Below the pieces are notes generated by a model. That model was not told where the DNA came from, did no database searches, and saw nothing but the letters and a program-made list of their open reading frames with translations. Both the position numbers and the translations under genes were made by a program. DNA of 64,000 nucleotides from Minisyncoccota bacterium (GTDB lineage: Bacteria > Patescibacteriota > Minisyncoccia > Phycocordibacterales > VMEP01): positions 33,591-97,590 of the forward strand of contig JBAZUR010000001.1 in NCBI GenBank assembly GCA_041661305.1, written 5' to 3'. Positions within the stretch are counted from its first letter, which is position 1. The number at the start of each line of letters is the position of its first letter. Positions 20,261-63,295 of this stretch are shown here, in pieces.

Positions 20261-20333
20261 TGCGCGATAGAGGAGTCGAACCTCTGACCTACCCCACGTC
20301 AAGGGGTCGCTCTACCAACTGAGCTAACCGCGC
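20261..20333 (-). tRNA. tRNA-Val (anticodon GAC)
   Basis: Reverse complement GCGCGGTTAGCTCAGTTGGTAGAGCGACCCCTTGACGTGGGGTAGGTCAGAGGTTCGACTCCTCTATCGCGCA. Confidence 0.85.
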
Positions 20334-22310: not shown

Positions 22311-22880
22311 TTAGATTTTAGAATACGATACGCTTTTTCCTGTTTTGCCTGTTTGTTTGATTTTCCCTTCTTTCGCCAGTGTTGATAGATACCTTGTCGC
22401 TGTGGCATCAGACACATGCAGGAGTTTCTCCACCTCGTCGTTAGTTATGCTTGCCCGCTTCTCAAGCAATACCAAAATCTTTTCCAGTTTCTTTCGTTTC
22501 CGGAACTGCATTGCGTTTCGCGCAATCGCTAGCAATTCACGGGCTCGGCTTCTTGGTTCTACTGCCGGAGTCGGAACTTGAGCCATTGGTTCGGGCTTCA
22601 ACGGCTCATTTGCCGGTATTTGAGCCGTTTGGGTTTGGGCTGGTTCGGCAACCGGTTCAAGAGCTAAATCAGGCTCATTTTGGGCTTCCGGTTGAGCCGT
22701 TTTCTCGGGTTCGGGGGCTTGGGCTGTAGGCTCGTTTGGTGGCTCAGAAACGGCAGGCGTATCAATGACCGGAGACGATATAACTTCGCTTGCGGGGGCT
22801 TCCACGGCCTCAGGGGGCACAGGGGAGGGTTCGGAAACGGTTGTATCTTTGGGAGGGAGTGTTAGGGGGTCTGGGGGCAT
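22311..22880 (-). CDS. Pro/Glu-rich protein with C-terminal winged-helix DNA-binding domain
   Basis: Low-complexity PEPxA N-terminus. C-terminal LLEKRASITNDEVEKLLHVSDATATRYLSTLAKEGKIKQTGKTGKSVSY wHTH. Confidence 0.5.
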   Translation of the reverse strand: MPPDPLTLPPKDTTVSEPSPVPPEAVEAPASEVISSPVIDTPAVSEPPNEPTAQAPEPEKTAQPEAQNEPDLALEPVAEPAQTQTAQIPANEPLKPEPMAQVPTPAVEPRSRARELLAIARNAMQFRKRKKLEKILVLLEKRASITNDEVEKLLHVSDATATRYLSTLAKEGKIKQTGKTGKSVSYSKI

Positions 22881-22908
22881 ATTTATATTTTAGCAAAATA
22901 AAAAACAT

Positions 22909-24402: not shown

Positions 24403-24463
24403 ACAAGTATCAGAAAACTATACCACTTGCTTTGTTTTATTTATATACCACCTAAAATCACAA

Positions 24464-25306
24464 TTATTGATTGGTTGGTTTAGCTATACCGGAAACAACA
24501 GAATTAACTTTTGAAAATAAATCTGGACTGTTTTCCTTCTCCTTTACATGATTGTCCTTGATATTTTTCATGGGCGAGGAATAAAGATCAGTGACGGCTC
24601 CAAGAATGAAGTCAAGTTTTTGCTGATAAGTAGTGGATTGGTAGTCAGAAAAAATTTCTTCAATTATATTTTTGTATGCTTCAAATGAGCGTGCGATAGC
24701 AGCTTTAAAAGTATATTCTTCAATGAGATTTCGTATCCGACCATATTCTCTACTGGTAAAAACGACAAAATAGACAATAGGGGAAGTCAGGGCAACTTTT
24801 ATTAGAAAGCTAACTTCAAATATAGTTTCTTTTTCTAGAATCTGCCAGACAACTATACCAACGGTGGCAATAATAAGAACGACCACTGCTCCAACTAGCC
24901 ACCAAAACCATTTTATTTTCTCTTTTCCCAACTCGTCCTTAACTCCTTCAAATGTACTCGCAAGCTTCGCATTTGCAGCCACCCCAAGTTGCGCCTGAGT
25001 CTCTTTAATAAACTCTTCTACTTTCTGTTGTAACTCTTTTGTTTTTTCAACTAAGTCGGACACTTCTCCTTCTCGTGTAATAACTTGTTCGTTTAGACTT
25101 TTTACCTCTGTGGTTATGCGGTTTAGTTCTTCGCTCCGTGTTGGCAAATCGTTTAGAAAAGAATCAATGTTAGTTTTTTTAGTTTGAGCGTCATTAATAA
25201 GATTTGGTAAACCCTGTCCTTGTTGAACAAGACTGTTTAAATCACCTAATGCCGTAAGTCGCTGATTTATCTCTGTAAGGACTTGTTGTAATTCTTTTTT
25301 ATTCAC
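24464..25306 (-). CDS. Coiled-coil membrane protein (hypothetical)
   Basis: N-terminal ~130 aa heptad-rich, two TM helices (FWWLVGAVVVLIIATVGIVVW; IKVALTSPIVYFVVF), C-terminal soluble tail. Confidence 0.5.
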   Translation of the reverse strand: MNKKELQQVLTEINQRLTALGDLNSLVQQGQGLPNLINDAQTKKTNIDSFLNDLPTRSEELNRITTEVKSLNEQVITREGEVSDLVEKTKELQQKVEEFIKETQAQLGVAANAKLASTFEGVKDELGKEKIKWFWWLVGAVVVLIIATVGIVVWQILEKETIFEVSFLIKVALTSPIVYFVVFTSREYGRIRNLIEEYTFKAAIARSFEAYKNIIEEIFSDYQSTTYQQKLDFILGAVTDLYSSPMKNIKDNHVKEKENSPDLFSKVNSVVSGIAKPTNQ

Positions 25307-25402
25307 AAATTTTTTTATCTAACTAATAATGTGGATAACTAGTTTTGGACTTTCTAGTTTTGTTCTAGTATAATTGATGGGTAAGAAACAAGTCAAGCCT
25401 AT

Positions 25403-26926
25403 ATGCTCACAAAACGCCAAAAAGAAGTTCTAGACTTCGTAGGAAGTTATTCCCAAAAGAAAGGTTATTCTCCATCGTTTGAAGAAATCAAAAAGCGACT
25501 TAAGCTCGCCTCTGTCTCAACTGTTCATTTCCATATATCAAAACTCAAAGAAGGTGGTTATTTAGGAAAAACAGAAAATAAGGCTCGTGCCATTAGTGTT
25601 GCGTCTAAAGAACCGATGATCAAAATCCCTCTTTTGGGAACTATCGCAGCCGGAGAGCCTATAGAGGCAATTCGTCAAAATGAGTTTATTGCTGTTCCTA
25701 AGAATGTATTACCTAGTACCGGTAATCTTTATGCTTTGAGAGTGATAGGAAATAGTATGATAGATGAAAATATTAAAAACGGAGATATTGTCTTAGTAAA
25801 ACAGCAAGATGTCGCGGAAAATGGAGAAAGGGTTGTTGCTTTAATTGATAATCATGAGGCAACGCTTAAGAAATTTTATAAAGAACGAGGATATATACGA
25901 CTTCAACCGGCAAATAAAACCTTTGAACCGATTATTATAAGAAAAGATCGTGACATTAAAATTCAAGGAGTTGTTATAGATGTTATTAAAAACGAGGAGG
26001 AATTACAGGCGGAGGAAATTACAATAATCAAAGAGACAAAAAAGGAAAGAAAGTTACCCCTTAATAAAATAATTTTAGGAGACGCTATCCAAGAACTAAG
26101 AAAACTCCCTAATGAAAGTTGTGATGTTGTTATAATTGATCCACCCTATAATATCGGTAAAGATTTTGGAAATAATATAGATAAAAGAGAACTTGGAGAA
26201 TATGTGGAGTGGTGTAAAAGTTGGATAGACGAAAGCATAAGAATCATGAAGCCAAATGGGACAATGTTTATTTATGGTTTTAGTGAAATTTTGGCTTACC
26301 TTTCTATTGAAATCCCGATACAAAAACGGTGGTTAATTTGGCATTATACAAATAAAAATGTTGCCTCACTCAATTTTTGGCAACGAAGCCATGAAGCAAT
26401 AATTTGCGCATGGAAAGATAAACCTGTTTTCAATAGGGATGAAGTTAGAGAACCATACACAGACGGCTTCCTAAATGGAGCTGCCGGCAAGGTAAGAAAA
26501 GGAACTCTCGGGAGATTTAGTAGCAGTGGTCTAGAAACTGTCTATAAAGCTCACGCGGGCGGGGCTCTGCCAAGAGATGTAATCAAAATTCCGGCTCTTG
26601 CTGGAGGAGCGGGAATGAACGAAAGATGGTTTTTGTGTAAAACCTGTGACGATGTTTGTGAACCACGACAACTGAAAAATCATGAGGGGCATGAAGTAAT
26701 GAAGCACCCGACACAAAAACCATTTGAGCTATCTAAGAAATTAATAAAATCTGCTATGCCTAAAAAGGACGGAATTGTGTTGGTTCCCTTCGTTGGTACT
26801 GGTTCAGAATGCGCGGCGGCAAAAGAATTAGGTCAATCGTATATTGGCTTTGAAATTAACCCTGACTATGTGAGGTTAGCTGAAAAAATGGTAGGCGATA
26901 AAAAATCGGTTGCCAAATTATTTTAA
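25403..26926 (+). CDS. Full-length LexA repressor fused in-frame to a DNA methyltransferase (beta-class N6A/N4C)
   Basis: Residues 1-200 align over their whole length with LexA: LTKRQKEVLDFV HTH, IAAGEP cleavage site, GNSM Ser and LKKFYK Lys. Residues ~230-507 carry VVIIDPPYN (motif IV), then C-terminal VLVPFVGTGSE (motif I) and a CxxC..H..H insert. Confidence 0.8.
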   Translation: MLTKRQKEVLDFVGSYSQKKGYSPSFEEIKKRLKLASVSTVHFHISKLKEGGYLGKTENKARAISVASKEPMIKIPLLGTIAAGEPIEAIRQNEFIAVPKNVLPSTGNLYALRVIGNSMIDENIKNGDIVLVKQQDVAENGERVVALIDNHEATLKKFYKERGYIRLQPANKTFEPIIIRKDRDIKIQGVVIDVIKNEEELQAEEITIIKETKKERKLPLNKIILGDAIQELRKLPNESCDVVIIDPPYNIGKDFGNNIDKRELGEYVEWCKSWIDESIRIMKPNGTMFIYGFSEILAYLSIEIPIQKRWLIWHYTNKNVASLNFWQRSHEAIICAWKDKPVFNRDEVREPYTDGFLNGAAGKVRKGTLGRFSSSGLETVYKAHAGGALPRDVIKIPALAGGAGMNERWFLCKTCDDVCEPRQLKNHEGHEVMKHPTQKPFELSKKLIKSAMPKKDGIVLVPFVGTGSECAAAKELGQSYIGFEINPDYVRLAEKMVGDKKSVAKLF

Positions 26927-27613
26927 AGCCTCATCCATTTCCTTTTTCTTCTGCTCAAAGGCGTAAGGAGTAAAAACAACGAAACCATTAGGGAATCGTT
27001 TTAATTCTTTGTTATCTTGGAACCTTTTATATGGGAGTTTATATTCGCCGTCCTTTTTCTTTGGGTTTTCAAAATACTCACTACTTGGAACTTCATAATT
27101 AATATCAATGAACTCGCCTTCTATTTTGTTTTTGACTCCTCCCTTACCACGCCTAACCTCGCCACTGAATGATTTCTTTTTAACTTGGTAGTTCAAGATT
27201 TTGCCTCTATATGTAATTTGAAAATCTGCTCCCTGATGGTCAAGCTCGCCTGACATAGAAACTGTGCCTTCGCCAAAAACTGATTCTGCAACATAACCGG
27301 CGTGGATTTGAGTGATTATACTCGCCCATGTTCTATAAATTCTAGCGGGCAATCCTTTATGAAAACATTCTTTACACATCCCAATTTTTTCTTGAAACTT
27401 TTTAATCTCTGCCCCATATTCACTCATATACTCTTTGTAAAATTCATCAAAACTTAGAAATTCTTTCTTCCCCCAGTATATTTTGTAGAGTAGGTTAATA
27501 GCTTGGATTTCTTTTGGTAAATCCATTTCCACGATCTTAACAGGTCTATATTTTTCACGATAGGACTTAAGGTCAACTGATTGTAAAAATTTGTCGAATT
27601 TTTGGACTAGCAT
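26918..27613 (-). CDS. Candidate type II restriction endonuclease (no recognisable family)
   Basis: 231 aa. Convergent with the MTase with a 9-nt 3' overlap. Immediately downstream of and co-oriented with the XRE controller gene. Possible D..(ADFQI)..K core. Confidence 0.4.
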   Translation of the reverse strand: MLVQKFDKFLQSVDLKSYREKYRPVKIVEMDLPKEIQAINLLYKIYWGKKEFLSFDEFYKEYMSEYGAEIKKFQEKIGMCKECFHKGLPARIYRTWASIITQIHAGYVAESVFGEGTVSMSGELDHQGADFQITYRGKILNYQVKKKSFSGEVRRGKGGVKNKIEGEFIDINYEVPSSEYFENPKKKDGEYKLPYKRFQDNKELKRFPNGFVVFTPYAFEQKKKEMDEALK

Positions 27614-27616
27614 AAA

Positions 27617-27835
27617 TTATAGAAAATATGATGACGGTTTTTGGTATATCTCTGCAAATTTTTTCATTTCTGCCACATCAAGCCTTCTTTCACCAGATTC
27701 AATCTTTGAGATAAAAGATTGTGGTTTCCCGAGCTTATCAGCAACATCTTGCTGTGCTAATCCGGCTTCAACACGCGCCTTTTTCAAGCGTCTTATAATC
27801 TCTTTGTAGTCCTTTGAATAAACAGATTTACTCAT
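27617..27835 (-). CDS. XRE-family HTH regulator (C-protein-like controller)
   Basis: MSKSVYSKDYKEIIRRLKKARVEAGLAQQDVADKLGKPQSFISKIESGERRLDV is a canonical HTH_XRE. Start taken at the internal ATG; the longer ORF extends into IR-A. Confidence 0.7.
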   Translation of the reverse strand: MSKSVYSKDYKEIIRRLKKARVEAGLAQQDVADKLGKPQSFISKIESGERRLDVAEMKKFAEIYQKPSSYFL

Positions 27836-27870
27836 GTATTTAGTATGATATATCCTTTTATGGTATAATC

Positions 27871-27897
27871 CCAAAATAGGATTATATAGAGTAGTTT
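27871..27897 (-). promoter_or_regulatory. Candidate C-box/operator palindrome upstream of the controller gene
   Basis: TATAATCC-tattttg-GGATTATA inverted repeat about 35-60 bp upstream of the XRE start. Confidence 0.35.
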
Positions 27898-27905
27898 TAC
27901 CCCTC

Positions 27906-28075
27906 GCCCCATCGCCCATACCTAAATCAAAGAATTTCCCGCCGGACTGATAAAGAATGGAGAGCGATGGGGCGAAGGGCGACCGCGCGTAATCGCGCGG
28001 TGGGCGCCGAGTGAAGCGAGGCGTTACGAGCTCCGCTCGAAAAAGGTTCGTGCAAAGGATAGAATTACATCACAA
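27906..28075. repeat. IR-A right copy (170 bp)
   Basis: Exact reverse complement of 21610-21779. Its outer 6 bp overlap IR-B left. Confidence 0.9.
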
Positions 28076-28206
28076 TTTGATACATCGGCTGGATTAAGAA
28101 AAAAATCGGCGTCCGCCTTCGGCGGAGTAAGTGGAGATAAAACGAAATCTGCCTTGCGGGTGCGGGCGAAATCGGAGGGCGGGCAAAATGAGATTGAGAT
28201 AGTTTT
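28070..28206. repeat. IR-B left copy (137 bp perfect inverted repeat)
   Basis: Exact reverse complement of 29624-29760. Confidence 0.9.
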
Positions 28207-28231
28207 TAAAGATTTTGAATCCAAAAGCGAT

Positions 28232-29818
28232 ATGTCTAAACCAAAATATTTTCTCTATGCTCGCAAGAGTACTGAAGATGACGATAAGCAAGTCATGAGT
28301 ATTGAAGCTCAATTGTTTGAACTTCGTGAGTTTGCGAGCAGAGAAAATCTTGAAATTATTGAGGAATTTCAAGAGTCAAAAAGCGCAAAGAGTCCGGGAC
28401 GAGAAGTGTTCGGCGTAATGATGATGCGTATAGAGAAAATGGGTAATGTTGGTATTCTCGCGTGGCATCCTGACCGCTTGGCGAGAAACAGTATTGATGG
28501 CGGACGCATCATTTACGCCGTAGACACTTCAAAAATCGTCTCTTTGCGTTTTCCGACATTTTGGTTTGAACCCACTCCGCAGGGGCTATTTATGCTTCAA
28601 GTGGCGTTCGGACAGTCCAAATATTATTCCGACAATTTGAAGCAGAATGTTGAACGAGGTATGCGCCAAAAACTGCGACGGGGCGAATGGCTGACACGCG
28701 CTCCCTTCGGGTATGTGAACAATCCTAAAACGCGCAATATTGAGCCGGATGTAGTGAAATCTAAAATTATTGTCCGCGCGTTTGGAGAATATGTAAAAGG
28801 AACACATACTCTAGAGTCGCTGTCGCAGTTTTTGGCTCTGCACGGTGTAGCGCAAAAGTCCGGAACGCCACTTGGCAAAGCTTCCGTGAAAAGAATTTTG
28901 ACTAATCGCGCTTATCTTGGATTCACTTTGCATCGCGGAGAATATTTTCCCGGAAGCTTTGCGCCAATTCTTTCTCCGACATTGTTTGAAGCTGTACAAA
29001 AAAGATTGGAAGAGCGAGCGCGTCCAAGACACAGCAAAATATCCCATAATTTTCCTTTCGTTGGTCTTTTTCGTTGTGGCGAGTGTGGCTCAATGATTAC
29101 CGCCCAATGGGCGACAAACCGGTGGGGTTCAAAGTATAGATATTATCGCTGTACGAAAAAGAAAGGAAAATGTTATCAGGGATATTTGAAAGAAGACGCT
29201 CTCGCTCTCCAAGTTAAGGAACAGCTTCAATCAGTGTCTATACCCCTAGCGTGGGCGGATTATATGCTCAAAAAAGTGGAAGAATTTGAGCATAACGAAA
29301 AACACGCTTCGGGAAATCGTCTCGGGCAGATGAAGGACAATCTGAAAACGCTTGAAGCGAAGTTAGACGCTCTTGTTGATTTGTATCTAAACCAAGACAT
29401 TGAGCGCGAGATATATCTGACGAAAAAGGACGCGCTCATGCGTCAAAAACTTTCGCTTCAAGCCAAATCTTCATCCGCCCGAGCCGTGAGAAAGAATTGG
29501 GTCGAACCCCTGCGGAAATGGATTTTGGATTCAAAACGCTCGGGGTTTCTCGCCACGAGCGAAAATCTCTATGAGATGAGAGATTTTCTTCGTTCCTTCG
29601 GAACGAACCCCTCGCTTAAAGACAAAACTATCTCAATCTCATTTTGCCCGCCCTCCGATTTCGCCCGCACCCGCAAGGCAGATTTCGTTTTATCTCCACT
29701 TACTCCGCCGAAGGCGGACGCCGATTTTTTTCTTAATCCAGCCGATGTATCAAATTGTGACCCTACAGGGAATCGAACCCTGGTTCCAAGCTTGAAAAGC
29801 TTGTGTCCTAACCGTTAG
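28232..29818 (+). CDS. Large serine recombinase (resolvase/invertase catalytic domain, recombinase domain and zinc ribbon)
   Basis: YARKSTEDDDKQVMSIEAQ (catalytic Ser), GILAWHPDRLAR, recombinase-domain segment and CGECGSMI...YRCTKKKGKC zinc ribbon. Start at MSKPKYF. The open frame runs through IR-B right into tRNA-Glu, so the true C-terminus is uncertain. Confidence 0.8.
   Translation: MSKPKYFLYARKSTEDDDKQVMSIEAQLFELREFASRENLEIIEEFQESKSAKSPGREVFGVMMMRIEKMGNVGILAWHPDRLARNSIDGGRIIYAVDTSKIVSLRFPTFWFEPTPQGLFMLQVAFGQSKYYSDNLKQNVERGMRQKLRRGEWLTRAPFGYVNNPKTRNIEPDVVKSKIIVRAFGEYVKGTHTLESLSQFLALHGVAQKSGTPLGKASVKRILTNRAYLGFTLHRGEYFPGSFAPILSPTLFEAVQKRLEERARPRHSKISHNFPFVGLFRCGECGSMITAQWATNRWGSKYRYYRCTKKKGKCYQGYLKEDALALQVKEQLQSVSIPLAWADYMLKKVEEFEHNEKHASGNRLGQMKDNLKTLEAKLDALVDLYLNQDIEREIYLTKKDALMRQKLSLQAKSSSARAVRKNWVEPLRKWILDSKRSGFLATSENLYEMRDFLRSFGTNPSLKDKTISISFCPPSDFARTRKADFVLSPLTPPKADADFFLNPADVSNCDPTGNRTLVPSLKSLCPNR
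29624..29760. repeat. IR-B right copy (137 bp)
   Basis: Reverse complement of 28070-28206. Ends exactly at the 3' end of tRNA-Glu. Confidence 0.9.
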
Positions 29819-29829
29819 ACGATAGGGCC
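29758..29829 (-). tRNA. tRNA-Glu (anticodon TTC)
   Basis: Reverse complement GGCCCTATCGTCTAACGGTTAGGACACAAGCTTTTCAAGCTTGGAACCAGGGTTCGATTCCCTGTAGGGTCA. Confidence 0.8.
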
Positions 29830-37950: not shown

Positions 37951-38038
37951 ATGGAACAACCGGAAAACAAAATCGCCCCATGTGGGGCGATTTTTTCTTG
38001 CATTTTGTGTTTAACTTTAGAGTGAGATATGTCTTTTT

Positions 38039-38116
38039 GAAAACATTGCGCAGGCCGACGAGGCCGAGCATAGCGATTCGCTAGCAAGCGAATACGCGTG
38101 TTTTCAAAAAGAGCAT
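38039..38116 (+). repeat. Intergenic structured motif R, copy 1
   Basis: gaaaacattgcgcag, GC hairpin ggccgacgaggcc, agcatagc, hairpin gattcgctagcaagcgaatac, gcgtgttttc. Shares boxes with copies at 41823 and 45464. Confidence 0.6.
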
Positions 38117-42947: not shown

Positions 42948-45407
42948 ATGGCTAAAGAGAAGGATTTGGAAATAAAAGAGGAACGAAAAGACGGGGTAGT
43001 GCCCGTCAATATTAGTTCTGAAATGAAGGAGTCATACCTCGACTATGCGATGTCGGTTATTACCCAGCGCGCTCTTCCTGATGTCCGCGACGGATTGAAG
43101 CCGGTGCATCGCCGTATCCTTTATGCGATGAACGAGATGGGACTTAATTCGTCTGCAAAATTTAGAAAATCAGCTGCAGTTGTTGGAGATGTTTTGGGAA
43201 AGTATCACCCGCACGGAGACGTGGCTGTTTATGACACCATGGTCAAAATGGCTCAAACTTTCTCCTATCGCTACCCACTTATTTTAGGTCAAGGAAACTT
43301 TGGTTCAATCGATGGTGACTCTGCTGCAGCAATGCGTTATACCGAAGCAAAAATGTCTCGTCTTTCCGGCGATCTTCTAAATGACATTGATAAAAATACT
43401 GTTGATTTTCGTCCAAACTATGATGGTTCAAGAAAAGAACCGATTGTATTACCAGCAGCAATGCCAAATCTTGTTTTAAACGGAACGCTTGGAATTGCTG
43501 TCGGTATGGCCACGAACATTCCCCCACACAATATTAGTGAGGTTATTGATGCCTGCGTCACTCTTATAGATAAAGATGATGTGACAAACGAGGATATTTT
43601 AATGCACATCAAAGGTCCAGATTTTCCTACTGGAGGAATGATTTTTGCTGACAAAGAAATGCGTCACGCATATGCGTCTGGTCGTGGTGGTGTCGTTTGT
43701 CGCGGTGAGGCAGAAATTTTGGAAACAAAACAGGACCAGTTTCAAATTATAATCACCTCCATTCCTTACCGCGTGAACAAAAGCGAGCTTATTGTTCATA
43801 TTGCAGATCTTGTTCGCGACAAAAAACTAGAGGGTATTAAAGACATTAGAGACGAATCAACAAGAGATATTCGTGTTGTTATCGATTTGAAAAACGGCAT
43901 TCATCCTCAGAAGGTTTTGAACTATATCTATAAGCATTCAGAGCTTGAGACAACTTTCCACTTCAATACCCTTGCTCTCCTCGACGGTGTTCCACAAACA
44001 CTTTCATTTAAGTCTATGCTCGAAGCATTTTTGGCTCATAGGCAAGTTGTTATAAGGCGCCGAACACAATTTGATTTGGACAAAGCCCTTGAACGTGAGC
44101 ATATTTTGATTGGTTTGAAGAAAGCACTCGATCATATTGAGGCGATTATTAAGACGATCAAAAAATCAAAAGATACTCCGACTGCTCAACTCAATTTGAT
44201 GAAGGAGTTTAAATTCTCTGATAGGCAAGCGAATGCAATTCTTGAGATGCGTTTGCAAAAACTCGCCGGGCTTGAGCGCAAAAATATTGAACTTGAATTA
44301 GAAGAAAAGCAAAAGCTAATCAAAGAGTTGAAAACACTTTTGGCTAGTGAGAAAAAAATACTTGATTTGATTAAGACAGAAATGCTTGAAATTAAAGCAA
44401 AGTATGGAGATGCTCGTCGCACAAAAGTTGTCCGTGGTGGAGTAAAGGAAATTTCTGACGAAGATTTGGTTGAAGACAAAGAGTCTGCGCTTGTGTTTAC
44501 GCAAGGCGGATATGTTAAGCGTACCGACCCAGCAGAGTATCGTGTTCAAAAACGTGGAGGAGTTGGTGTTGTTGATTTAAATACAAAAGAAGAAGACATT
44601 GTTTCGCTGTTGATTACAACATCAACGCATAGCGACCTTTTGTTCTTTACAGACAAAGGGAAGGCATACCAAATGAAAATGTATGATATTCCAGAGGGAA
44701 GACGCGCAACTCGCGGAAAATCAATTATGAATTTCCTATCGCTTTCTGCGGAAGAAAATGTCACCTCGATTTTGCCGATGCCAAAATCACTTAAGGATGA
44801 AAAAATGTCACTCGCAATGCTTACCAAGAACGGAACTATCAAAAAGGTTTCCGCGGATAGTTTCAAAGATGTTCGAAGAAGTGGGCTTATTGCTATCAAA
44901 CTTGAACAAGGAGACGAGCTTCTCTCAGCTTTCTTTGCGCGTAAAGGAGATAGTATTATTCTTGCAACCAAAAAAGGACAATCAATTCGCTTTGAGGAGT
45001 CTGATGTGCGTGAGATGGGACGAGCTGCAGGTGGGGTGCGCGGAGTGAAGCTTGGAAAAGGGGACGCTGTTGTTGGTGCAGATGTTGTGCGCCCTGATTT
45101 TAAGAACCCAAACATGCTCGTGATGATGGAAAATGGTTATGGAAAGCGTACTCCAATGAAAGAATATAAAATACAAAAACGTGGTGGTTCAGGAATGAAG
45201 ACAGCAAAAACTACCCCAAAAACAGGTAACGTCATCGCGGCCAAAATAGTGACCGACGAGCTTACACAAGTTATCGCGATGTCTAAGAAGAGTCAGGTTG
45301 TGAAAGTTGACCTCTCAACCATTCCTGTTTTGGGACGCGCTACTCAAGGTGTGCGCATTATGAAGCCAAGAGAGGGGGATAGTTTAGCTTCACTTACTTG
45401 TCTTTAA
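42948..45407 (+). CDS. gyrA: DNA gyrase subunit A
   Basis: [28 protein letters not shown], active-site Tyr region and GyrA-box beta-pinwheel repeats. Confidence 0.9.
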
Positions 45408-45463
45408 TCTAATTCTGTTTTTTTGTTGGTATTTTTTTTCTTTATCATTCCGTTTTTATTTTT

Positions 45464-45532
45464 AAAAACATTACGGAGCGCGACGGCGCGAGTATAGCAA
45501 TCCGCCAGCAGGCGGATATGCGTGTTTTTGGA
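45464..45532 (+). repeat. Intergenic structured motif R, copy 3
   Basis: aaaaacattacggag, hairpin cgcgacggcgcg, agtatagc, hairpin aatccgccagcaggcggata, tgcgtgtttttgg. Confidence 0.55.
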
Positions 45533-45617
45533 AATAAAAGCAAAATTTATATAAGCAAGGTATACACAAAAGCTTGCTCTATGGTCTAATAACTTTTATA
45601 ATTTAAGCAAGTAATTT

Positions 45618-47917: not shown

Positions 47918-48316
47918 ATGAAAAAAAATAAAGTAAAAAGAATTTCTGCTTTGGTCGCGACAAATCTAACTATCTTTTTATTTTTATTACTTCCATTTTT
48001 CACAATTGTTTCGGCGCAACAGATTCCACTACAGGGAACTACTCCAAAACTTCAAAACCCACTCGGGAGTAGCAATAATAGCCTTACTGCTTTTGCCAAC
48101 TCTATCGTAGACGCAGTGGTGACGGTCGGTCTCCCGATTGCCGCCTTGATGATTGTCTACTCCGGTTTTCTTTTTGTTAAAGCTCGCGGAAACCCCTCTG
48201 AGCTTGAAGTTGCAAAAAGAGCGTTTTTTTACGCGCTTGTAGGTATCGCTATAATTTTGGGGGCAAAAGTTTTGTCGGAAGTCATAAAAGGGACGATTGA
48301 TGTTTTAAGGAGCTAA
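47918..48316 (+). CDS. Pilin-like small membrane protein, paralog 2
   Basis: Same architecture. Loop ARGNPSELEVAKRA. Confidence 0.45.
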   Translation: MKKNKVKRISALVATNLTIFLFLLLPFFTIVSAQQIPLQGTTPKLQNPLGSSNNSLTAFANSIVDAVVTVGLPIAALMIVYSGFLFVKARGNPSELEVAKRAFFYALVGIAIILGAKVLSEVIKGTIDVLRS

Positions 48317-48329
48317 TTAATAAATAATT

Positions 48330-48719
48330 ATGAAAAAAATGAAAAAAGGAAAGTTTGCGGTTTTAGGATTAGCTAGTTTAATGGTGTTCCCAGTGGTTGC
48401 GCATGGCATCTCAGATTTCGCGGGTCTTGTAAATTTTATTACTGACACAATAATCATGTCGCTTATTAAACTGATTGGTGCACTTGCGACACTATTTTTC
48501 TTGTGGGGTGTAATGAAATTCATAAAGGATGCAGATAATCCAGCAAAGAGAGCCGAAGGACAACAATTCATTCTTTATGGTCTTATAGGACTTTTTGTTA
48601 TGGTCTCTTTTTACGGAATTGTTCGAATTCTTGAGAATACATTTCAACTACCAACAAACAACACTTCTGTAGGAAGTTCCTATCCAGCAGGTAAAACTGG
48701 GTCAAGCTACTCGCTATAG
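48330..48719 (+). CDS. Pilin-like small membrane protein, paralog 3
   Basis: Same architecture. Loop KDADNPAKRAEGQQ. Confidence 0.45.
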   Translation: MKKMKKGKFAVLGLASLMVFPVVAHGISDFAGLVNFITDTIIMSLIKLIGALATLFFLWGVMKFIKDADNPAKRAEGQQFILYGLIGLFVMVSFYGIVRILENTFQLPTNNTSVGSSYPAGKTGSSYSL

Positions 48720-50223: not shown

Positions 50224-51401
50224 GGCTTACCCTTTCCCTCAGGTTTCCCGGAGTTGGGAGTTTTGGCAAAAAGACCGGAAACGAAGTTTATTACTGCCTC
50301 CATTCCCTCACCCTTTATTTCCTGAACGTTGTGGTGGACGGTTTTGGTAACTGCTTTTCCAAGCACCATCGCCGCCTCCATCGCCTCTTTGTCGGAGATT
50401 GCTTCACCTCCGCCTGAGCTCTTCTTTTGAAGCACTTCCGCCGTTTCCTTCACCTTCTTGGCGATTTCCCTTGTTGCCAGAGCTTCCTGGAACTTCGGAT
50501 CGTAGTCGATGTCGGATATTGCGACGAGAATCAAGTCGATGCCGTACGCCTCTTCGTATGATGCTGGCGCCGTCGAACGACCTTCTTCTCTGAGAGCCTC
50601 TTTCTTTTCGTTGAGTTCCTTGATTTTGTCGAGGTACTCGTCGATGGCTTTGATTACCAGGCTCTCTCGCTTCTTCCAGATCTCCTTGTCAGAAACATTG
50701 GCAAGGGGGGCGACGCCGTTCGTATTACTTTCGGTCGGCTCTTGTAGCTCGAGTTGAATTTCGTACTCGTAGTGCCCTTTCACACAGTTTTCGATGCGCT
50801 TGATGTTCTTTCTGGCCGTCTCGGCGGTGAGGTTGGCAAAAATCTGCGCGAGAAAACTCGAGCCGATATCGTGCAAACCACCGTCAATCACAGTTTTGTC
50901 GACCGCGATGTACTTGCCGATGTTGCCACGCATCCCACGGTATTGGAATCCCCACACCACATGAAGCATTACGCCGTCGAGCGCTGGGTAAGTTTCACCC
51001 TTCTCGAAATCCTTGGCGAATATCCTCAAGTTGATGTAGTTTCCCGGCTTGACCTGTTCCCAGGGAAACCGTAAATGGATTCCCGTTTGGTATTCCTTGA
51101 GCTCTCCGCCGAAGAGGTTGACCGTGATAAGCGATGTCACCTCCGGAACGGAAACAAGGAAGTAGGGAAGAGAACGACCCAGAAGCAAAAGCCAAATGGC
51201 CATTGCAAAGAGAGCGACCTCTTTCTGGAACATTCCCATGCCGAACGTTGCAAACGCGAAGGAAAGCAAAAACTTGGTGACCAAAAACAAGGCCACACAG
51301 AAAGAGAGAAGGAGAGCTATCTCCCACCCCTTGTCTGTTCGGAACATAGGAACCGGCTTTCCTGCTGGAGCAATGTTGGTGTTCATAACTTCTCCTTTCA
51401 A
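50220..51401 (-). CDS. SPFH/band-7 (stomatin/prohibitin-like) domain membrane protein
   Basis: N-terminal TMs, then VSVPEVTSLITVNLFGGELKEYQTGIHLRFPWEQVK...DGVMLHVVWGFQY SPFH core. Long C-terminal coiled coil. Confidence 0.7.
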   Translation of the reverse strand: MKGEVMNTNIAPAGKPVPMFRTDKGWEIALLLSFCVALFLVTKFLLSFAFATFGMGMFQKEVALFAMAIWLLLLGRSLPYFLVSVPEVTSLITVNLFGGELKEYQTGIHLRFPWEQVKPGNYINLRIFAKDFEKGETYPALDGVMLHVVWGFQYRGMRGNIGKYIAVDKTVIDGGLHDIGSSFLAQIFANLTAETARKNIKRIENCVKGHYEYEIQLELQEPTESNTNGVAPLANVSDKEIWKKRESLVIKAIDEYLDKIKELNEKKEALREEGRSTAPASYEEAYGIDLILVAISDIDYDPKFQEALATREIAKKVKETAEVLQKKSSGGGEAISDKEAMEAAMVLGKAVTKTVHHNVQEIKGEGMEAVINFVSGLFAKTPNSGKPEGKGKP

Positions 51402-51563
51402 TGTGCGGTATTTAGCTGAGCGAAAATGCCAAGCTATTACTGCTTCAAATTATACATAAAATGAGCCAAAAGTCAAGGTGGGGAGGGGTGTTAAAAAGGT
51501 CTCGATTACGAGTTATGGAATAAAGAAAGGAGACTCGGCTAAGAACATTTTTACTCGTCGGCA

Positions 51564-51749
51564 CTCGTAGAAACTGGAGGGGGAAACTCGGTCACGAATA
51601 ATTTTGAGGACAAAATTTTCGCGACCCCGGCTCGCTGTCGCAGAGCGACATGCTCCGTCTTTCGAGTCTCCACACAAGCCAAGCAGTTGGCTTGTTCCTC
51701 CAGCACATAATTAAAAAACACACCCTAAAGGGTGTGTTTTTTAATTATG
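51564..51749 (-). repeat. tRNA-associated miniature element downstream of tRNA-Leu(TAG)
   Basis: Copy ctggagggggaaactcg of the tRNA-Leu 3' segment fused to M motif ggtcacgaataattttgaggacaaaattttcgcgaccccggctcg (51579-51623). Box ccgtctttcgagtctcc. Hairpin caagccaagcagttggcttg. 48-bp perfect palindrome terminator (51706-51753). Confidence 0.65.
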
Positions 51750-51831
51750 TGCTGGAGGGGAGACTCGAACTCCCAAGCCTTGCGGCATTAGTTCCTAAGA
51801 CTAACGCGTATACCAATTCCGCCACTCCAGC
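51750..51831 (-). tRNA. tRNA-Leu (anticodon TAG)
   Basis: Reverse complement GCTGGAGTGGCGGAATTGGTATACGCGTTAGTCTTAGGAACTAAT...GGGAGTTCGAGTCTCCCCTCCAGCA (long variable arm). Confidence 0.8.
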
Positions 51832-51870
51832 AAGTTGTTTGTCGCCAATATAAAAATACTACACGTATCG

Positions 51871-52021
51871 CAAGAGTCGGTCACGAATAATTTTGAAGAC
51901 AAAATTTTCGCGACCCCGGCTCACCTCGTTTTGTAAGAACAAAACATGGTTCCGCCTTTCGACTCCTGCCCGCAAGTGAAGCAGTTCACTTGCTTGAGCG
52001 GATATCTCGCTGCGCTCAATG
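51871..52021 (-). repeat. tRNA-associated miniature element downstream of tRNA-Lys
   Basis: M motif 51879-51923 (loop gaagac), preceded by a partial tRNA-like copy caagagtcg. Box ccgcctttcgactcctgc is an inverted copy of the tRNA-Lys T-region. Hairpin caagtgaagcagttcacttg. Confidence 0.6.
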
Positions 52022-52094
52022 TCCGCCCAGCAGGAGTCGAACCTGCGACCATTTGCTTAAGAGGCAACTGCTCTACCAACTGAGCTATGGGCGG
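52022..52094 (-). tRNA. tRNA-Lys (anticodon CTT), unusual C1:G72 first pair
   Basis: Reverse complement CCGCCCATAGCTCAGTTGGTAGAGCAGTTGCCTCTTAAGCAAATGGTCGCAGGTTCGACTCCTGCTGGGCGGA. Confidence 0.7.
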
Positions 52095-52136
52095 ATATAT
52101 ATAATTTTATACTAACTTTGTTAGCATCTACCAACT

Positions 52137-52264
52137 GGTCACTCATAATTTCTTGCTAGAAATTTGCTCGACCCCGACTCGCCTCGTCAGGCTCCGTCTC
52201 TCAATTGCTTCACATGTCGCAATTGAGCCCCGCCCGTACTGAACGTACGTTCGGGCTGGTATGG
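52137..52264 (-). repeat. Degenerate tRNA-associated element (variant M') flanked by fragments of tRNA-Lys
   Basis: Variant motif ggtcactcataatttcttgctagaaatttgctcgaccccgactcg. Preceded by tctaccaactg (a copy of the tRNA-Lys D-region) and followed at 52250-52262 by ggtatgggcggat (a copy of the tRNA-Lys 5' end). No intact tRNA attached. Confidence 0.5.
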
Positions 52265-52367
52265 GCGGATATTTCTAACGAGTTGAATCATAGCAATTTA
52301 TTGCATATTTTTCAATGAAAATAGGGAAAAGGACTCGGGGTAGAAAAGGGACAGTATTTTTTTCTTG

Positions 52368-52474
52368 TGGTCACGTATAATTTCTTGCTAGAAATTTACG
52401 CGACCCCGCCTCGCGCCGTCGCGCTCCGGCCGGGACCAAATAAAAATACTCACTTAGGTGAGTATTTTTATTTG
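52368..52474 (-). repeat. tRNA-associated element (variant M') downstream of tRNA-Leu(TAA)
   Basis: ggtcacgtataatttcttgctagaaatttacgcgaccccgcctcg. Then a 40-bp perfect palindrome terminator ccaaataaaaatactcac-ttag-gtgagtatttttatttgg abutting the tRNA 3' end. Confidence 0.55.
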
Positions 52475-52557
52475 GTGCCCGGAGTGGGACTCGAACCCAC
52501 ACGACCTATTGGCCAACAGATTTTAAGTCTGTAGCGTCTACCATTCCGCCATCCGGG
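52475..52557 (-). tRNA. tRNA-Leu (anticodon TAA)
   Basis: Reverse complement GCCCGGATGGCGGAATGGTAGACGCTACAGACTTAAAATCTGT...GTGGGTTCGAGTCCCACTCCGGGCA. Confidence 0.8.
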
Positions 52558-52599
52558 CAAATTTAAAATATTTTATTCTACTTAAATAAACTAAGCAAA

Positions 52600-52772
52600 A
52601 ATTGCTTGAGGCCTAGGGCGGAATCGGTCACGAATAATTTTTACTACCTGCAAAAATTTTCTCGACCCCGGCTCGCGATTTTGTCTGCTGACAAAATATC
52701 GCTCCGCCTTTCGCTTCCGTCACATCCCGCAAGCAGTTGCGGGATTCTATGCCGTCGGAACTTCCTCTAGGA
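52600..52772 (-). repeat. tRNA-associated miniature element downstream of tRNA-Cys
   Basis: 21-nt exact direct copy ttgaggcctagggcggaatcg (52600-52620) of the tRNA-Cys 3' trailer, acceptor and T-loop (52780-52800). It is fused to M motif 52620-52669. Box ccgcctttcgcttcc. Hairpins catcccgcaagcagttgcgggat and acttcctctaggaagt. Confidence 0.7.
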
Positions 52773-52844
52773 AGTATCCTTGAGGCCTAGGGCGGAATCG
52801 AACCGCCGTATAAGAGTTTTGCAGACTCTCGCCTTACCACTTGG
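52773..52844 (-). tRNA. tRNA-Cys (anticodon GCA), U73 discriminator
   Basis: Reverse complement GGCCTAGTAGCCAAGTGGTAAGGCGAGAGTCTGCAAAACTCTTATACGGCGGTTCGATTCCGCCCTAGGCCT. Confidence 0.85.
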
Positions 52845-52904
52845 CTACTAGGCCTTAATTATCACATGGCCAATTAGCCAGTGTGTTATAGCACATAGGG
52901 CATT

Positions 52905-53234
52905 CTACAGATTTCGCGATAAATCGTCTATTCTTTGGCGTGCTTTCTCTCCAGCATCAATAGCAAAAAGAATTGAAGGGAGTCTAGAAATTCTTGAGTT
53001 TGATTTTATAAAATCATAAAATTCTCTTTTTTTACGGTTTGCAAAATCAATCACGGCGTTCTCTTGGTTTGTGTCTGGAAAAACAGTAACAAAAATAGTC
53101 ACTTTTTTCTTATCATTTGAAAGTTGGGCGTTGGTGACAGTAATTAGCGAGGTGCGATTAGACTCGCGCTCCAAAAACCTCGCGGCAAGCTCTTTTATGA
53201 CATCTAGCATTTTTTCTTCTCGTCCTTGAGGCAT
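52905..53234 (-). CDS. rbfA: Ribosome-binding factor A
   Basis: 109 aa RbfA-like (KH-like fold), immediately downstream of infB as in the conserved operon. Confidence 0.75.
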   Translation of the reverse strand: MPQGREEKMLDVIKELAARFLERESNRTSLITVTNAQLSNDKKKVTIFVTVFPDTNQENAVIDFANRKKREFYDFIKSNSRISRLPSILFAIDAGEKARQRIDDLSRNL

Positions 53235-61823: not shown

Positions 61824-61867
61824 TAGATTATATTATCACGCTCCGGCTTTCGAATCCTTCTAAACAC

Positions 61868-61892
61868 AAAAAATCCCTTTCGGGATTTTTTA
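61868..61892 (-). terminator. Terminator downstream of tRNA-Tyr
   Basis: aaaaaatccc-tttc-gggatttttt. Confidence 0.6.
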
Positions 61893-61895
61893 GCT

Positions 61896-63079: not shown

Positions 63080-63224
63080 GGCGGGCCCACGGGAATCGGT
63101 CACAAGTATTTTTCTGCTGAAAAATCTCGCGACCCCAGCTCGGCACGTCTGCCTCCGCCTTTCGAATCCTCACGCAAGCAAAATGATTTGCTTGCTGTGA
63201 TCCCTACGTTCACTTTGTTCACAG
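63080..63224 (-). repeat. tRNA-associated miniature element downstream of tRNA-Trp
   Basis: Copy ggcgggcccacgggaatcg of the tRNA-Trp 3' end fused to M motif ggtcacaagtatttttctgctgaaaaatctcgcgaccccagctcg (63098-63142). Box ccgcctttcgaatcctc is an inverted copy of the tRNA T-region. Hairpin gcaagcaaaatgatttgcttgc. Confidence 0.65.
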
Positions 63225-63295
63225 CGGGCCCACGAGGATTCGAACCTCGGTCAACGGTTTTGGAGACCGTTATTCTACCACTGAACTATAGGCCC
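63225..63295 (-). tRNA. tRNA-Trp (anticodon CCA)
   Basis: Reverse complement GGGCCTATAGTTCAGTGGTAGAATAACGGTCTCCAAAACCGTTGACCGAGGTTCGAATCCTCGTGGGCCCG. Confidence 0.85.

Follow-up and report, generated by a model that had tools for sequence, protein, structure and literature searches.

Four tRNA genes on the minus strand, for Leu(TAG), Lys(CTT), Leu(TAA), and Cys(GCA), lie at 51749-52854 of the window (the whole 64-kb stretch of DNA analyzed here), where ARAGORN and Rfam place them in agreement with an earlier note on this sequence, and each is followed by a small element that contains no ORF. A scan of the window for the motif CGAGCCGGGGTCGCGAAAATTT, with 3 mismatches tolerated, gave eight matches against 0.00 expected by chance. 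Seven of these copies are linked to tRNA genes, just as the earlier note had listed them: the four above, plus those at tRNA-Val, tRNA-Trp, and the plus-strand tRNA-Arg. It had missed the eighth (52137-52260, upstream of tRNA-Lys), and the motif begins 60-115 nt past the end of the tRNA, and not 100-190 bp as it had been placed. In all, the window holds eight canonical copies, two divergent free-standing copies, and two truncated remnants, and 9 of its 12 tRNA genes are affected when the remnants are counted.

The elements measure 111-206 nt at tRNAs and >200 nt at topA (~110-250 nt overall), and are built in one order: a copy of the target's 3' end, a hairpin, a guide, the helices Pa and P3, a GG, and the helix P4, with a terminal GTGACC. 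The Leu(TAG) element (51590-51766, minus strand; 177 nt) runs from G57 of the tRNA to GTGACC, and comprises the 3' part of the tRNA, a 29-bp trailer palindrome, P2 (loop AACTGCTT), the guide GGAGACTCGAA, Pa/P3, and P4 (covariance model score 68.5 bits; fold z = -5.5). Downstream of it lies the direct repeat GAGTTTCCCCCTCCAG, which covers the T loop, T stem, and acceptor (51574-51589, minus). The Lys(CTT) element (51879-52038, minus; 160 nt; 73.4 bits) has a guide, GCAGGAGTCGAA, that corresponds to the T arm at 12 of 12 positions, and a downstream repeat, GACTCTTGC (~51870-51878, minus). The Cys(GCA) element (52626-52799, minus; 174 nt; 57.3 bits) has P2, a guide, a long P3, and a long P4; its direct repeat, GATTCCGCCCTAGGCCTCAAG (52605-52625, minus), is an exact 21-nt copy of the tRNA 3' end and three trailer bases. 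The Leu(TAA) element (52369-52476, minus; 72.6 bits) is without P2 and has the guide TATTTGGTCCC and the downstream repeat ACAAGAAAAAAATACT (52353-52368, minus). This guide pairs with the tRNA 3' end and trailer, and the junction therefore lies near 72|73. A direct copy of the tRNA 3' part with a junction in the T loop had been claimed throughout; this stands for the repeats at Cys (21/21) and Leu(TAG) (~16 nt) and for the junction TTC|GA, between positions 56 and 57, which the Trp, Val, Lys, and Arg copies have as well, but at Leu(TAA) the repeat matches the 3' end plus trailer and the junction reads approximately GGGC|ACCAAAT.

Three further tRNA genes in the window carry complete elements. 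That of Val(GAC) (20121-20277, minus; 157 nt; 83 bits) has the 14-nt repeat GACCCCTCTATCAC (20107-20120, minus), and that of Trp(CCA) (63098-63241, minus; 144 nt; 84.7 bits), which was folded by minimum free energy, has a diverged 18-nt repeat, GATTCCCGTGGGCCCGCC (63080-63097, minus). The Arg(CCT) element (13600-13790, plus; 191 nt; 45.1 bits) is followed by a recurrent 15-nt insert, GAAAGCGTACTCGCG, and then by ATTCCTGCT; repeats at Lys and Arg are ~10 nt long. To the features already noted we add a second, partial right end at the Arg locus (13830-13877, plus; 21.5 bits), which has only the P4 hairpin, reaches its GTGACC end at 13866, and carries the repeat GATTCCTGCCA, and remnants after tRNA-Gly and tRNA-Tyr. 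The tRNA-Gly(CCC) remnant (13102-13143, plus) has kept, besides the direct copy TACCCGCAC and a P2 hairpin with the loop AAACTGCTTT, an inverted copy of the acceptor 3' strand, but no core; the truncated tRNA-Tyr remnant (61839-61894, minus) runs through a terminator hairpin and the guide GAAGGATTCGAA as far as AGCCGGAGCG, beyond which the sequence is unrelated.

A three-helix module folded from the sense strand

The conserved part of the element is a 75-90-nt module of three helices, folded from the gene-sense strand. It consists of the guide, one linker base (usually A), Pa (G-N-C), a bulged G, a tandem G.A/A.G, P3, GA, Pa', GG, and P4, the last of the form GGUCGCG...bulged A...YGUGACC with an invariant G.U and the bulged A 9-10 nt from the 3' end. 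The GA on the 3' side is found in 112/114 copies and the bulged G in 108/114. The junction strands of the three-way junction are N3-A, GG, and none, and very few unpaired bases are conserved.

The earlier observation that the hairpin is conserved through compensating changes is borne out: pairing amounts to 98.6% in P4, where five pairs show double changes, and to 100% in Pa, whose middle pair occurs in every one of the four Watson-Crick combinations (GCC/GGC in 33 copies, GGC/GCC in 26, GAC/GUC in 24, and GUC/GAC in 10). Across the whole fold 86% of cells are paired, compared with 76% in shuffles, and the covariation score of 0.33 (0.14 in shuffles) was reached by none of 500 shuffles. Minimum-free-energy folds reproduce the three-way junction with z between -2.7 and -5.7. 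While one G.U is invariant, a second position is G.U in 21/45 copies; since both would be A.C mismatches on the opposite strand, it is the tRNA-sense strand that folds. The core is invariant across all eight window copies, in which the guide and repeat diverge, although its conservation is partly an ascertainment effect because our search patterns demanded a conserved P4.

A conserved hairpin is present only at the right end of the element. Hairpins on the left side are copy-specific trailers, and in many tRNA copies a hairpin resembling an intrinsic terminator precedes the core. A kissing interaction of the P2 loop AACUGCUU with P4 loops (CAGCAG) was considered and rejected, as the two showed neither co-occurrence nor covariation.

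Distribution and targets

A genome scan returned at least 120 loci, nearly all in records of Patescibacteria MAGs, and a metagenome scan at least 119; together the motif scans yielded >230 loci, almost all labelled Patescibacteria. The one match from a scan of viral contigs falls within a GC-rich coding region and is due to chance. A single conserved core is found at >30 different targets, at tRNA 56|57, tRNA 72|73, tmRNA, and protein genes. Among the matches listed, the tRNA hosts span at least 29 anticodons, with two tRNA sublocations used by the one core. The other hosts are tmRNA (confirmed) and the 3' ends of topA, where the insertion was found in six genomes, and of further protein genes. 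The association of the motif with tRNA genes, as first proposed, thus holds at those many anticodons but is too narrow, in that tmRNA, protein genes, and free-standing copies have to be included.

At the gathering threshold, Rfam 15 recognizes nothing in the whole window besides tRNAs and RNase P RNA, and at E values up to 10 the interval 51400-53000 has no relevant family, and no ribozyme or intron. A search of the full-text literature found no description of the elements, and ordinary annotation, as had been remarked before, does not explain them. They had been likened to MITEs or CIMEs. Small insertions at tRNA 3' halves they are, but neither label fits. No terminal inverted repeat joins the ends, the left being a local copy of the target and the right being P4 ending in GTGACC, and there is no fixed-length target-site duplication, the repeats measuring ~10 (Lys, Arg), 21 (Cys), and up to 87 nt (topA, locus L229). 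For a CIME, or any att-bounded element, one integrase and one target are expected, whereas the same core is found here at at least 29 anticodons, at two sublocations, in tmRNA, and in protein genes.

Neither a transposase, an integrase, nor a reverse transcriptase was found in or beside the elements, and clustering of 2,434 flanking ORFs (~1.5 Mb of flanking DNA) showed no enrichment for any of the three. When the left repeat or guide target was sought up to 6-8 kb upstream, as a sign of an autonomous version with ORFs, every element proved to be ≤206 nt and distant matches were at chance level. Pfam searches of 40 window ORFs identified housekeeping genes and one serine-recombinase/restriction-modification island, which is unrelated to the copies. 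The large serine recombinase island adjoins the tRNA-Glu gene of the window, and that gene has no copy.

The guide and the position of the junction

The box between the tRNA and the motif, described previously as an inverted copy of the T loop and T stem, is indeed their reverse complement (e.g., GCAGGAGTCGAA for Lys), and the pairing extends over 94 copies from many genomes. In these, the guide is complementary to tRNA positions 54-65, with positions 54-56 paired in ~90% and positions 59-64 in 70-83%. What had been missed is that the box is a variable guide that tracks the target, whatever the target is, along with the fixed 3-nt offset described below, the targets at 72|73, in tmRNA, and in protein genes, and the Patescibacteria-wide spread. 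We conclude that this 11-13-nt guide, complementary to the sense strand near the gene 3' end, chooses the site.

The new joint falls after the third target base of the guide:target duplex, regardless of the target sequence; counted from Pa, it is the fifth base upstream that pairs with the first base of the flank. In 100 elements picked solely for a non-G flank, the flank matches the reverse complement of the guide at an offset of 3 and at no other offset. The match at that offset averages 4.5/8 and is at least 6/8 in 34 copies, compared with 0-4 copies at other offsets and a mean of 6 (maximum 13) for shuffled partners. The rule applies to targets as unrelated as TTC|GA, TTC|AA, CGC|ACAAAG, TCC|ACAAA, CAC|AAAAACC (topA), and GTC|GAGTC, and triplets that precede the junction are ACC, TTC, CAC, CGC, and TCC. 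The guide itself sits 45-135 nt from the left junction. Since a continuous duplex encloses the junction, models that invoke an RNase P external guide, RNase Z, or bulge-helix-bulge splicing were set aside.

Where the repeat and the tRNA disagree, the guide sides with the tRNA at 144 sites versus 59, so that it is not clear that a guide:flank stem persists once the element has inserted. The commonest guide:target mismatch is A:C, as AT-biased decay would predict.

Replacement of gene ends and turnover

The left side of the element brings its own copy of the gene end, together with a hairpin. Because everything between the junction and the gene end is supplied by the element, its host, whether a tRNA, tmRNA, or protein gene, stays intact, and the displaced native 3' end persists downstream as the direct repeat. 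In protein genes, the core lies within the 3' end, beside a duplicated coding tail. At the topA gene of locus L067, the element-borne and displaced tails differ by 11 synonymous and no non-synonymous changes in 19 codons, and at that of L229 the 87-nt repeat has three differing positions, one of which is a stop codon in the displaced copy.

Several observations support insertion over the fixed tRNA trailer that had been offered as an alternative. The tRNA-Cys site of locus L074 is empty, since the next tRNA directly abuts it; tRNA-Gly carries a full copy in a ~79%-identical relative (L092) and is left with a remnant in the window; copies can be nested, composite, or in tandem; and there are copies in protein genes. 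Between genomes with ~79% identity in their genes, the identity of the cores is 92-100%. Contigs that are 99-100% identical to the window, which were found by exact-protein match (two of three proteins gave contigs and one gave none), share the same copies, so that no recent movement is seen among such closely related strains.

Interpretation of the family

Taken together, we favor the view, with a probability of about 60%, that these are integrative mini-elements spread across the Patescibacteria, which have no ORF, bear a guide, and are programmable and directed to their sites by that guide. Several findings weigh against this view: no transposase, integrase, or reverse transcriptase was found in or beside the elements, a terminator-like hairpin stands ahead of the core in many tRNA copies, 99%-identical strains share the same copies, the guide follows the tRNA where the repeat differs from it, and the D-loop family and the free-standing copies are exceptions to the scheme.

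An alternative that we regard as unlikely is a derivative of an IS200/IS605 (PATE)-type ssDNA transposon, in which the folded strand would be sense-strand DNA and a circle would be excised and inserted by a Y1 HUH transposase that is encoded elsewhere and cuts at guide-paired sites. As in IS200/IS605 elements and PATEs, one strand is folded with a subterminal right-end hairpin, cleavage points would be fixed by pairing with internal sequence, and terminal inverted repeats and a fixed-length duplication are both absent; moreover, the terminal hairpin, flush with the right end, is specific to one strand and contains a bulge and mismatches that are conserved, and insertion occurs 3' of a short sequence that mostly ends in C. 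The guide of IS608, however, is ~4 nt long and adjoins the hairpin, whereas the present one exceeds it about threefold in length and is remote from both ends. A PATE should have similar TnpA-bound hairpins at both ends, but nothing at the left end resembles the right-end hairpin, and the elements differ further in starting with a copy of the target and in always making a repeat. The tandem G.A and bulged G are more typical of RNA, and the elements are always co-oriented with the host gene. Neither TnpA nor TnpB was found near the elements, no TnpA-like family recurs in the ~1.5 Mb of flanking DNA, and no Y1 transposase was seen in the 64-kb window or in the 2-14-kb loci.

It is also quite improbable, in our judgment, that the module is a self-catalytic RNA (a mini-intron or reverse-splicing ribozyme), whose guide would bring the 5' flank (3 bp) into line with the downstream sequence in the manner of group I P1/P10, so that the module exchanges strands at C|R, with DNA copies made by reverse transcription. 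The guide does span the junction, the three-way junction shares its topology with the type I hammerhead, the cut site immediately following P4, and P4 has a bulged A 9-10 nt from its 3' end. Against this, there is no match to an Rfam ribozyme or intron even at E = 10, very few unpaired bases are conserved, and the geometry differs between the two junctions. All 108 copies that would yield a tRNA on removal in silico also have an intact, unspliced tRNA, so splicing is never needed, and an obligate intron is rejected, as no tRNA depends on removal of the element.

Group I introns are RNA elements of the same genes and phylum, occurring in tRNA anticodon loops and in the T loop of tmRNA, where they use T-loop subsites (PMC13011429, PMC11915505), and they too have an internal guide that pairs with both junction flanks. 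In contrast to them, removal is not required here, there is no Intron_gpI match, the P3-P9 core is absent, and the conserved part is <90 nt; the -1 base is a C paired with G, and not a U.G, and the element ends in C, and not in a terminal G. A group II intron, defined by domains I-VI, a 5' GUGYG, and the domain V catalytic triad, is rejected for want of an Rfam match and because the element is too small; the bulged A of P4 recalls domain VI, but as a likeness only. A survey of Patescibacteria genomes (PMC13011429) detected no group II introns, the kind that encodes a reverse transcriptase. The type I hammerhead has a comparable three-helix junction, in which one hairpin immediately precedes the cut or joint site and the strand that pairs with upstream sequence follows it, but the CUGANGA...GAAA core is absent here, the triplets before the site are not NUH, and Rfam gives no match.

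We are similarly skeptical that the elements are host-functional trailer RNAs (stabilizers of the 3' end, terminator or processing signals, or modification guides) that spread by duplication and now evolve in place. Such a role would suit the occupancy of 9/12 window tRNAs, the core that is invariant in 8/8 window copies while guide and repeat diverge, and the presence of the same copies in 99%-identical strains. The k-turn-like motif and the "fifth base" ruler recall box C/D guides, and archaeal Cm56, a modification of what is here the junction base, can be guide-directed. Left unexplained, however, are the direct repeats and duplicated protein-coding tails, the nested and tandem copies, the empty orthologous sites and truncated remnants, and the topA and other mRNA targets. 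In box C/D guides, C (RUGAUGA) and D (CUGA) boxes form a k-turn next to the guide. These boxes are absent here; a tandem G.A/A.G with a one-base bulge is conserved and the fifth-base ruler is analogous, and this G.A motif is on the opposite side of the guide from that of the box C/D k-turn.

Integrative elements of tRNA and tmRNA genes (tyrosine-integrase islands, prophages, and CIMEs) similarly insert in the T loop or acceptor 3' end, supply a replacement 3' end, displace the native end as a direct repeat, and home to the same gene across genomes. They differ from the present family, which is 110-250 nt long without integrase or cargo, uses one module at dozens of unrelated targets, and has an internal complementary guide with a fixed 3-nt offset. 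That the copies are scars (attL/attR remnants or CIMEs) of such integrase-driven islands or prophages is hardly credible: the restored gene end and displaced repeat are the classic signature of integrase insertion, the T loop and acceptor 3' end are among the usual crossover sublocations that Williams is said to have listed in 2002, and a large serine recombinase island abuts the window tRNA-Glu, but one conserved core serves >30 targets, the size is constantly 111-206 nt and never above, no integrase is encoded nearby (by clustering of flanking ORFs), att sites have no counterpart of the internal guide and fixed offset, and the recombinase-adjacent tRNA-Glu has no copy.

A possible mechanism

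Returning to guide-directed integration, it is probably as RNA, transcribed together with the host gene, that the module is read. Strand-specific wobble pairs, the k-turn-like G.A, and co-orientation with the host gene are the features of the sequence that suggest an RNA, and ssDNA could look alike. Its role would be to place a strand-transfer activity that depends on the guide and is encoded outside the element, and this activity would swap the ...NNC 3' end of the target for the ...ACC 3' end of the element on a shared downstream sequence. The agent would most likely be a trans-acting nuclease or recombinase that works as an RNP, and the unit may spread among genomes by homing to the same conserved sites.

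A structured RNA of the element that would set the DNA target by pairing, as putatively occurs here, recalls the bridge (seek) RNAs of IS110/IS1111, the TIGR-Tas systems, which occur in CPR bacteria, and guides of the box C/D type. As here with the fifth base from Pa, a fixed count from a structural anchor gives the position under the C-5 rule of TasR and, for box C/D RNAs, the D+5 rule (PMC12045711), which serve as an analogy only. Unlike IS110 and TIGR-Tas, no recombinase or Nop-domain ORF is present in or near the elements. Assignment to IS110/IS1111 itself is rejected, since a DEDD/serine recombinase ORF is required within the element, and those found here are ORF-less and 111-206 nt long; separate target and donor loops are likewise required, and there is a single continuous guide 5' of the three-way junction.

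We propose tentatively, with the odds against it, that the module is the RNA part of a new programmable DNA-insertion system, in which the 11-13-nt guide and the five-base Pa ruler set the exact phosphodiester that is joined to a 100-250-nt unit, the catalyst being either the RNA itself or a small, unrecognized host or helper protein widespread in Patescibacteria. If the favored reading as guide-directed mini-elements is right, most tRNA genes of the smallest bacterial genomes known are colonized by a gene-less parasite that uses base pairing to locate its site and mends the gene into which it inserts. Mobile DNA would then have a previously unrecognized means of persisting in streamlined genomes. 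It would explain much of the unannotated intergenic DNA beside the tRNA, tmRNA, and some protein genes of Patescibacteria, as well as their apparent pseudo-fragments. Once found, the catalyst could provide very compact programmable insertion, given the 11-13-nt guide, the single-nucleotide precision, and the lack of any coding capacity.

Divergent arrangements

The D-loop family and the free-standing copies depart from the simple scheme. The eighth canonical copy, a composite of the "D-loop type" (52137-52260, minus; 70.9 bits), is located upstream of an intact tRNA-Lys and is flanked by a pseudo 5' tRNA-Lys fragment (52261-52272) and a D-loop copy, AGTTGGTAGA; this arrangement recurs in loci of the L097, L139, and L156 type. 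The covariance model, a check that the earlier note had suggested, recovered the two copies without a tRNA. The first (38034-38109, plus; 37.8 bits, E = 1.4e-9; z = -5.7) has the fold of Pa, G.A, P3, and P4 with its bulged A, and is closed by a 12-13-bp stem formed from its own flanks. The second (45459-45533, plus; 34.1 bits; z = -5.0) begins ~50 nt past the stop codon of an 819-aa ORF (42948-45407).

Elements at the 3′ ends of tRNA genes in the window

Four minus-strand tRNA genes (Leu-TAG, Lys-CTT, Leu-TAA and Cys-GCA) lie at 51564-52844, and each is followed, in tRNA orientation, by the motif ...CGAGCCGGGGTCGCG-AAAATTTT-loop-AAAATTATT-CGTGACC. When we searched the 64-kb window with the 22-nt left half of this motif, allowing three mismatches, we obtained 8 occurrences, versus 0.00 in dinucleotide-preserving shuffles. 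Seven copies are located 3′ of tRNA-Arg (plus strand), Val, Leu-TAG, Lys, Leu-TAA, Cys and Trp, and the eighth lies between tRNA-Leu-TAA and tRNA-Lys. The sequence immediately 3′ of GTGACC repeats the tRNA from G57 on, over 21/21 nt at Cys, ~18 nt at Trp, ~16 nt at Leu-TAG, ~14 nt at Val and ~10 nt at both Lys and Arg. Truncated remnants are found 3′ of tRNA-Gly and tRNA-Tyr, and only tRNA-Phe, Glu and Ser have neither copy nor remnant. The earlier note had reported the motif behind the four clustered tRNAs, the same architecture at Val, Trp and Arg, and a direct copy of the tRNA end beside the motif. Given the eight copies, their adjacency to tRNAs and the G57-onward repeats, that description is confirmed, with corrections.

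At tRNA-Arg, a recurrent insert, GAAAGYGTAMTCRCG (15 nt in the window, 13791-13805; 13-15 nt overall), separates the GTGACC end from the direct repeat. It also occurs in loci from other genomes and metagenomes (L012, L026, L087, L095, L104, L113 and L118), repeatedly at tRNA-Arg sites, and may be a trace of a second type of element, either its footprint or its 5′ stub.

A conserved fold on the sense strand

In gene orientation, an element begins with the gene segment 3′ of the junction, which in T-loop copies runs from G57 to the tRNA end and trailer. A hairpin follows, often containing the acceptor 3′ strand and trailer in inverted form (at Leu-TAG, a perfect 29-bp palindrome), and then, in some copies, hairpin P2, whose loop AACTGCTT is conserved. 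Next come the guide, a single linker base (A in 77/100 copies), helix Pa (G-N-C), a bulged G (108/114 copies), GA or CA, hairpin P3 of 11-53 nt, GA (112/114 copies), Pa′ (G-N′-C), GG, and hairpin P4, GGTCG(C/A)G...YGTGACC, in which an A bulges out 9-10 nt before the end; such conservation statistics are biased, because the non-window copies were gathered with patterns demanding a conserved P4. Either in-place selection or a recent spread may account for the invariance of the core.

Every Watson-Crick combination occurs at the middle pair of Pa (33, 26, 24 and 10 copies for the four). When 45 sequences are aligned, 86.3% of cells are paired under the proposed structure, versus 75.6% in shuffles, and the structure's covariation score of 0.33, versus 0.14 in shuffles, was reached by none of 500 shuffles. 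Sliding the partners by 1-3 columns drops pairing to 37-50%, and single-sequence folding returns the same three-way junction (z -2.7 to -5.7). P4 contains one invariant G.U and a second position that is G.U in 21/45 copies. Read from the complementary strand, both would be A.C mismatches, so it is the gene-sense strand that folds, whether as RNA or as single-stranded DNA.

After tRNA-Gly, at 13102-13143, there is a lone P2 hairpin (loop AAACTGCTTT) flanked by inverted and direct copies of TACCCGCAC, and the orthologous tRNA-Gly of L092, a ~79%-identical relative, carries a full element that lacks P2. Possibly P2 is a module in its own right.

A variable guide complementary to the insertion site

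Across 94 T-loop copies, the stretch immediately 5′ of the linker is complementary to tRNA positions 54-56 in ~90% of cases and to positions 59-64 in 70-83%. As T loops are conserved, this pairing could reflect inheritance rather than function, and we therefore used as a test set metagenome-scan copies whose flank starts with a non-G base. Here the guide varies among copies and tracks the flank, which is the reverse complement of the guide only after its first three bases are skipped. At this offset of 3, the mean was 4.5/8 matches, with 34 copies at ≥6/8 (n = 100), compared with means of 2.0-2.9/8 and 0-4 such copies at other offsets (n = 100); with shuffled partners, offset 3 gave a mean of 3.0/8 and on average 6 (maximum 13) such copies. 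Junctions include CGC|ACAAAG, TCC|ACAAA, CAC|AAAAGCG and AGC|ACATG, as well as CAC|AAAAACC in topA. At the left junction, the skipped guide triplet pairs with the final three bases of the upstream flank, which usually end in C. Put differently, counting five bases upstream from Pa gives the guide base that pairs with the first base past the joint. Most tRNA copies use one of two sublocations, 56|57 (~18-20 nt from the end) and 72|73 (0-4 nt from the end).

Carried gene ends and displaced tails

A recurrent non-tRNA target is the coding end of the C-terminal zinc ribbon of topA (...MMEGTKTIPERCS...), in which six genomes (L067, L110, L141, L148, L149 and L229) have an insertion at the same point, ~80 nt before the stop codon. 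The reading frame runs via the element-borne copy to a stop codon, and the displaced native tail is still legible past GTGACC. Both tails in L067 encode the same 19 residues, with 11 synonymous and 0 non-synonymous differences, and the element-borne tails of L067 and L110 (...PHKIAK) are closer to each other than to their own displaced tails. The 87-nt repeat in L229 has 3 differences, one of which puts a stop codon in the displaced copy, and it stops just short of the native terminator. A carried end with a displaced tail is the classic signature left by integrative elements that come with a copy of the gene end they interrupt. In-silico removal of the element gives a tRNA in 108/273 copies, and all 108 also keep an intact, unspliced tRNA; removal is never required for a tRNA, in agreement with that signature.

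Evidence for mobility, and absence of coding capacity

Several observations speak for movement. In L074, tRNA-Cys abuts the next tRNA directly, at a site that is occupied in the window, L003, L006 and L093. In L092 (~79% gene identity), a complete copy, whose 18-nt repeat is perfect, follows tRNA-Gly, where the window has a remnant only, and the tRNA-Arg unit is inverted and of a different build. Cores are 92-100% identical across genomes at this level of gene divergence. Strains at 99% identity to the window share its copies, which speaks against recent movement. Copies at tRNAs reach at most 206 nt and contain no ORFs, and among 2,434 flanking ORFs no transposase-like family was enriched.

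Nested, composite and tandem copies also speak for movement. Some are nested within a longer P4 variant (GGGGTCGAGAGTACTTAG...CTTAGTAACTCGTGACC) and some composites have two Pa-P3 cores before one P4 (L019, L033, L042, L049 and L079; L092, 4074-4243).

Distribution

Scanning one genome per species with the exact pattern yielded at least 120 loci, and among the matches listed nearly all are labelled as Patescibacteria/CPR MAGs (Saccharibacteria, Paceibacteria, Kaiser-, Morani-, Nomura-, Yonath-, Zambryskiibacteria and others), bearing in mind that MAG labels can be wrong. A scan of metagenomes gave at least 119 loci. Two canonical copies (L002 and L046) are on short contigs binned as Polaromonas and a gammaproteobacterium, which are probably misbinned Patescibacteria contigs. 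One match in Clostridia lacks the structure and is a chance hit, and the viral contigs scanned gave a chance match only. The targets are many and unrelated. A same-strand tRNA lies ≤300 nt upstream in 83/126 pattern matches listed, representing at least 29 anticodons, and upstream in 95/135 covariance-model matches, for which E-values are rough. Many matches without an upstream tRNA sit at locus ends; the remainder are 3′ of tmRNA genes (confirmed as the preceding gene in L011, L016, L019 and L076), inside protein-gene 3′ ends, or nested within other copies.

Possible mechanism

We infer that the module is a guide that would position a strand-transfer activity, swapping the target's ...NNC-3′ for the element's ...ACC-3′ on common downstream sequence. 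One guide could read the donor left junction as well as a naive target, which would explain why the element has to start with a target copy. We favour a read-out by RNA together with a putative trans-acting protein, because the G.U and G.A features resemble those of RNA, elements are invariably oriented in the direction in which the host gene is transcribed, and young topA copies sit upstream of the native terminator. The rivals to this reading are an IS200/IS605-like single-stranded-DNA mechanism, a self-catalytic RNA, a trailer module that serves the host, and att scars of the usual kind.

In behaviour the elements resemble integrase-driven islands in tRNA genes, and in targeting logic they resemble guide-reading systems (IS200/IS605, IS110 bridge RNA, TIGR-Tas, box C/D RNAs and intron guide sequences); each defining feature of these families that we tested was either absent or matched in part. 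The fixed count of five bases in the elements recalls the rules of TasR (C-5) and of box C/D RNAs (D+5). In CPR bacteria, TIGR-Tas systems are present (PMC12045711), which offers a lead rather than evidence.

Other features

In a "D-loop family", the element lies upstream of an intact tRNA-Lys, Val or Asn. The element is flanked on the left by a duplicated leader and a pseudo 5′ fragment (the first 9-10 nt of the tRNA), and on the right by copies of the D loop and, inverted, of the tRNA 5′ end. We found this family at 52137-52272 in the window and in L156, L163, L173, L203, L209, L232 and L097 (1-400, in tandem repeats). Two divergent three-helix copies without a tRNA (38034-38109 and 45459-45533) are each just downstream of a protein gene and closed by a 12-13-bp stem from their own flanks.

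The region 22311-29829, adjoining tRNA-Glu and tRNA-Ser, is probably an integrated island. It encodes an HTH protein, a PD-(D/E)XK + RNase_H_2 nuclease (22909-24402), a fusion of a LexA-S24 peptidase with an N6/N4 DNA methylase (25403-26926), a TaqI-like restriction enzyme (26918-27613) and a large serine recombinase (28154-29818) whose 3′ end overlaps the opposite-strand tRNA-Glu. The RNase P RNA (bacterial class A, 6008-6375) scores 104.3 bits against a gathering threshold of 100 and appears to be a divergent version. Two small neighbouring genes at 47918-48719 match the type IV secretion pilin family (T4SS_pilin/TrbC).
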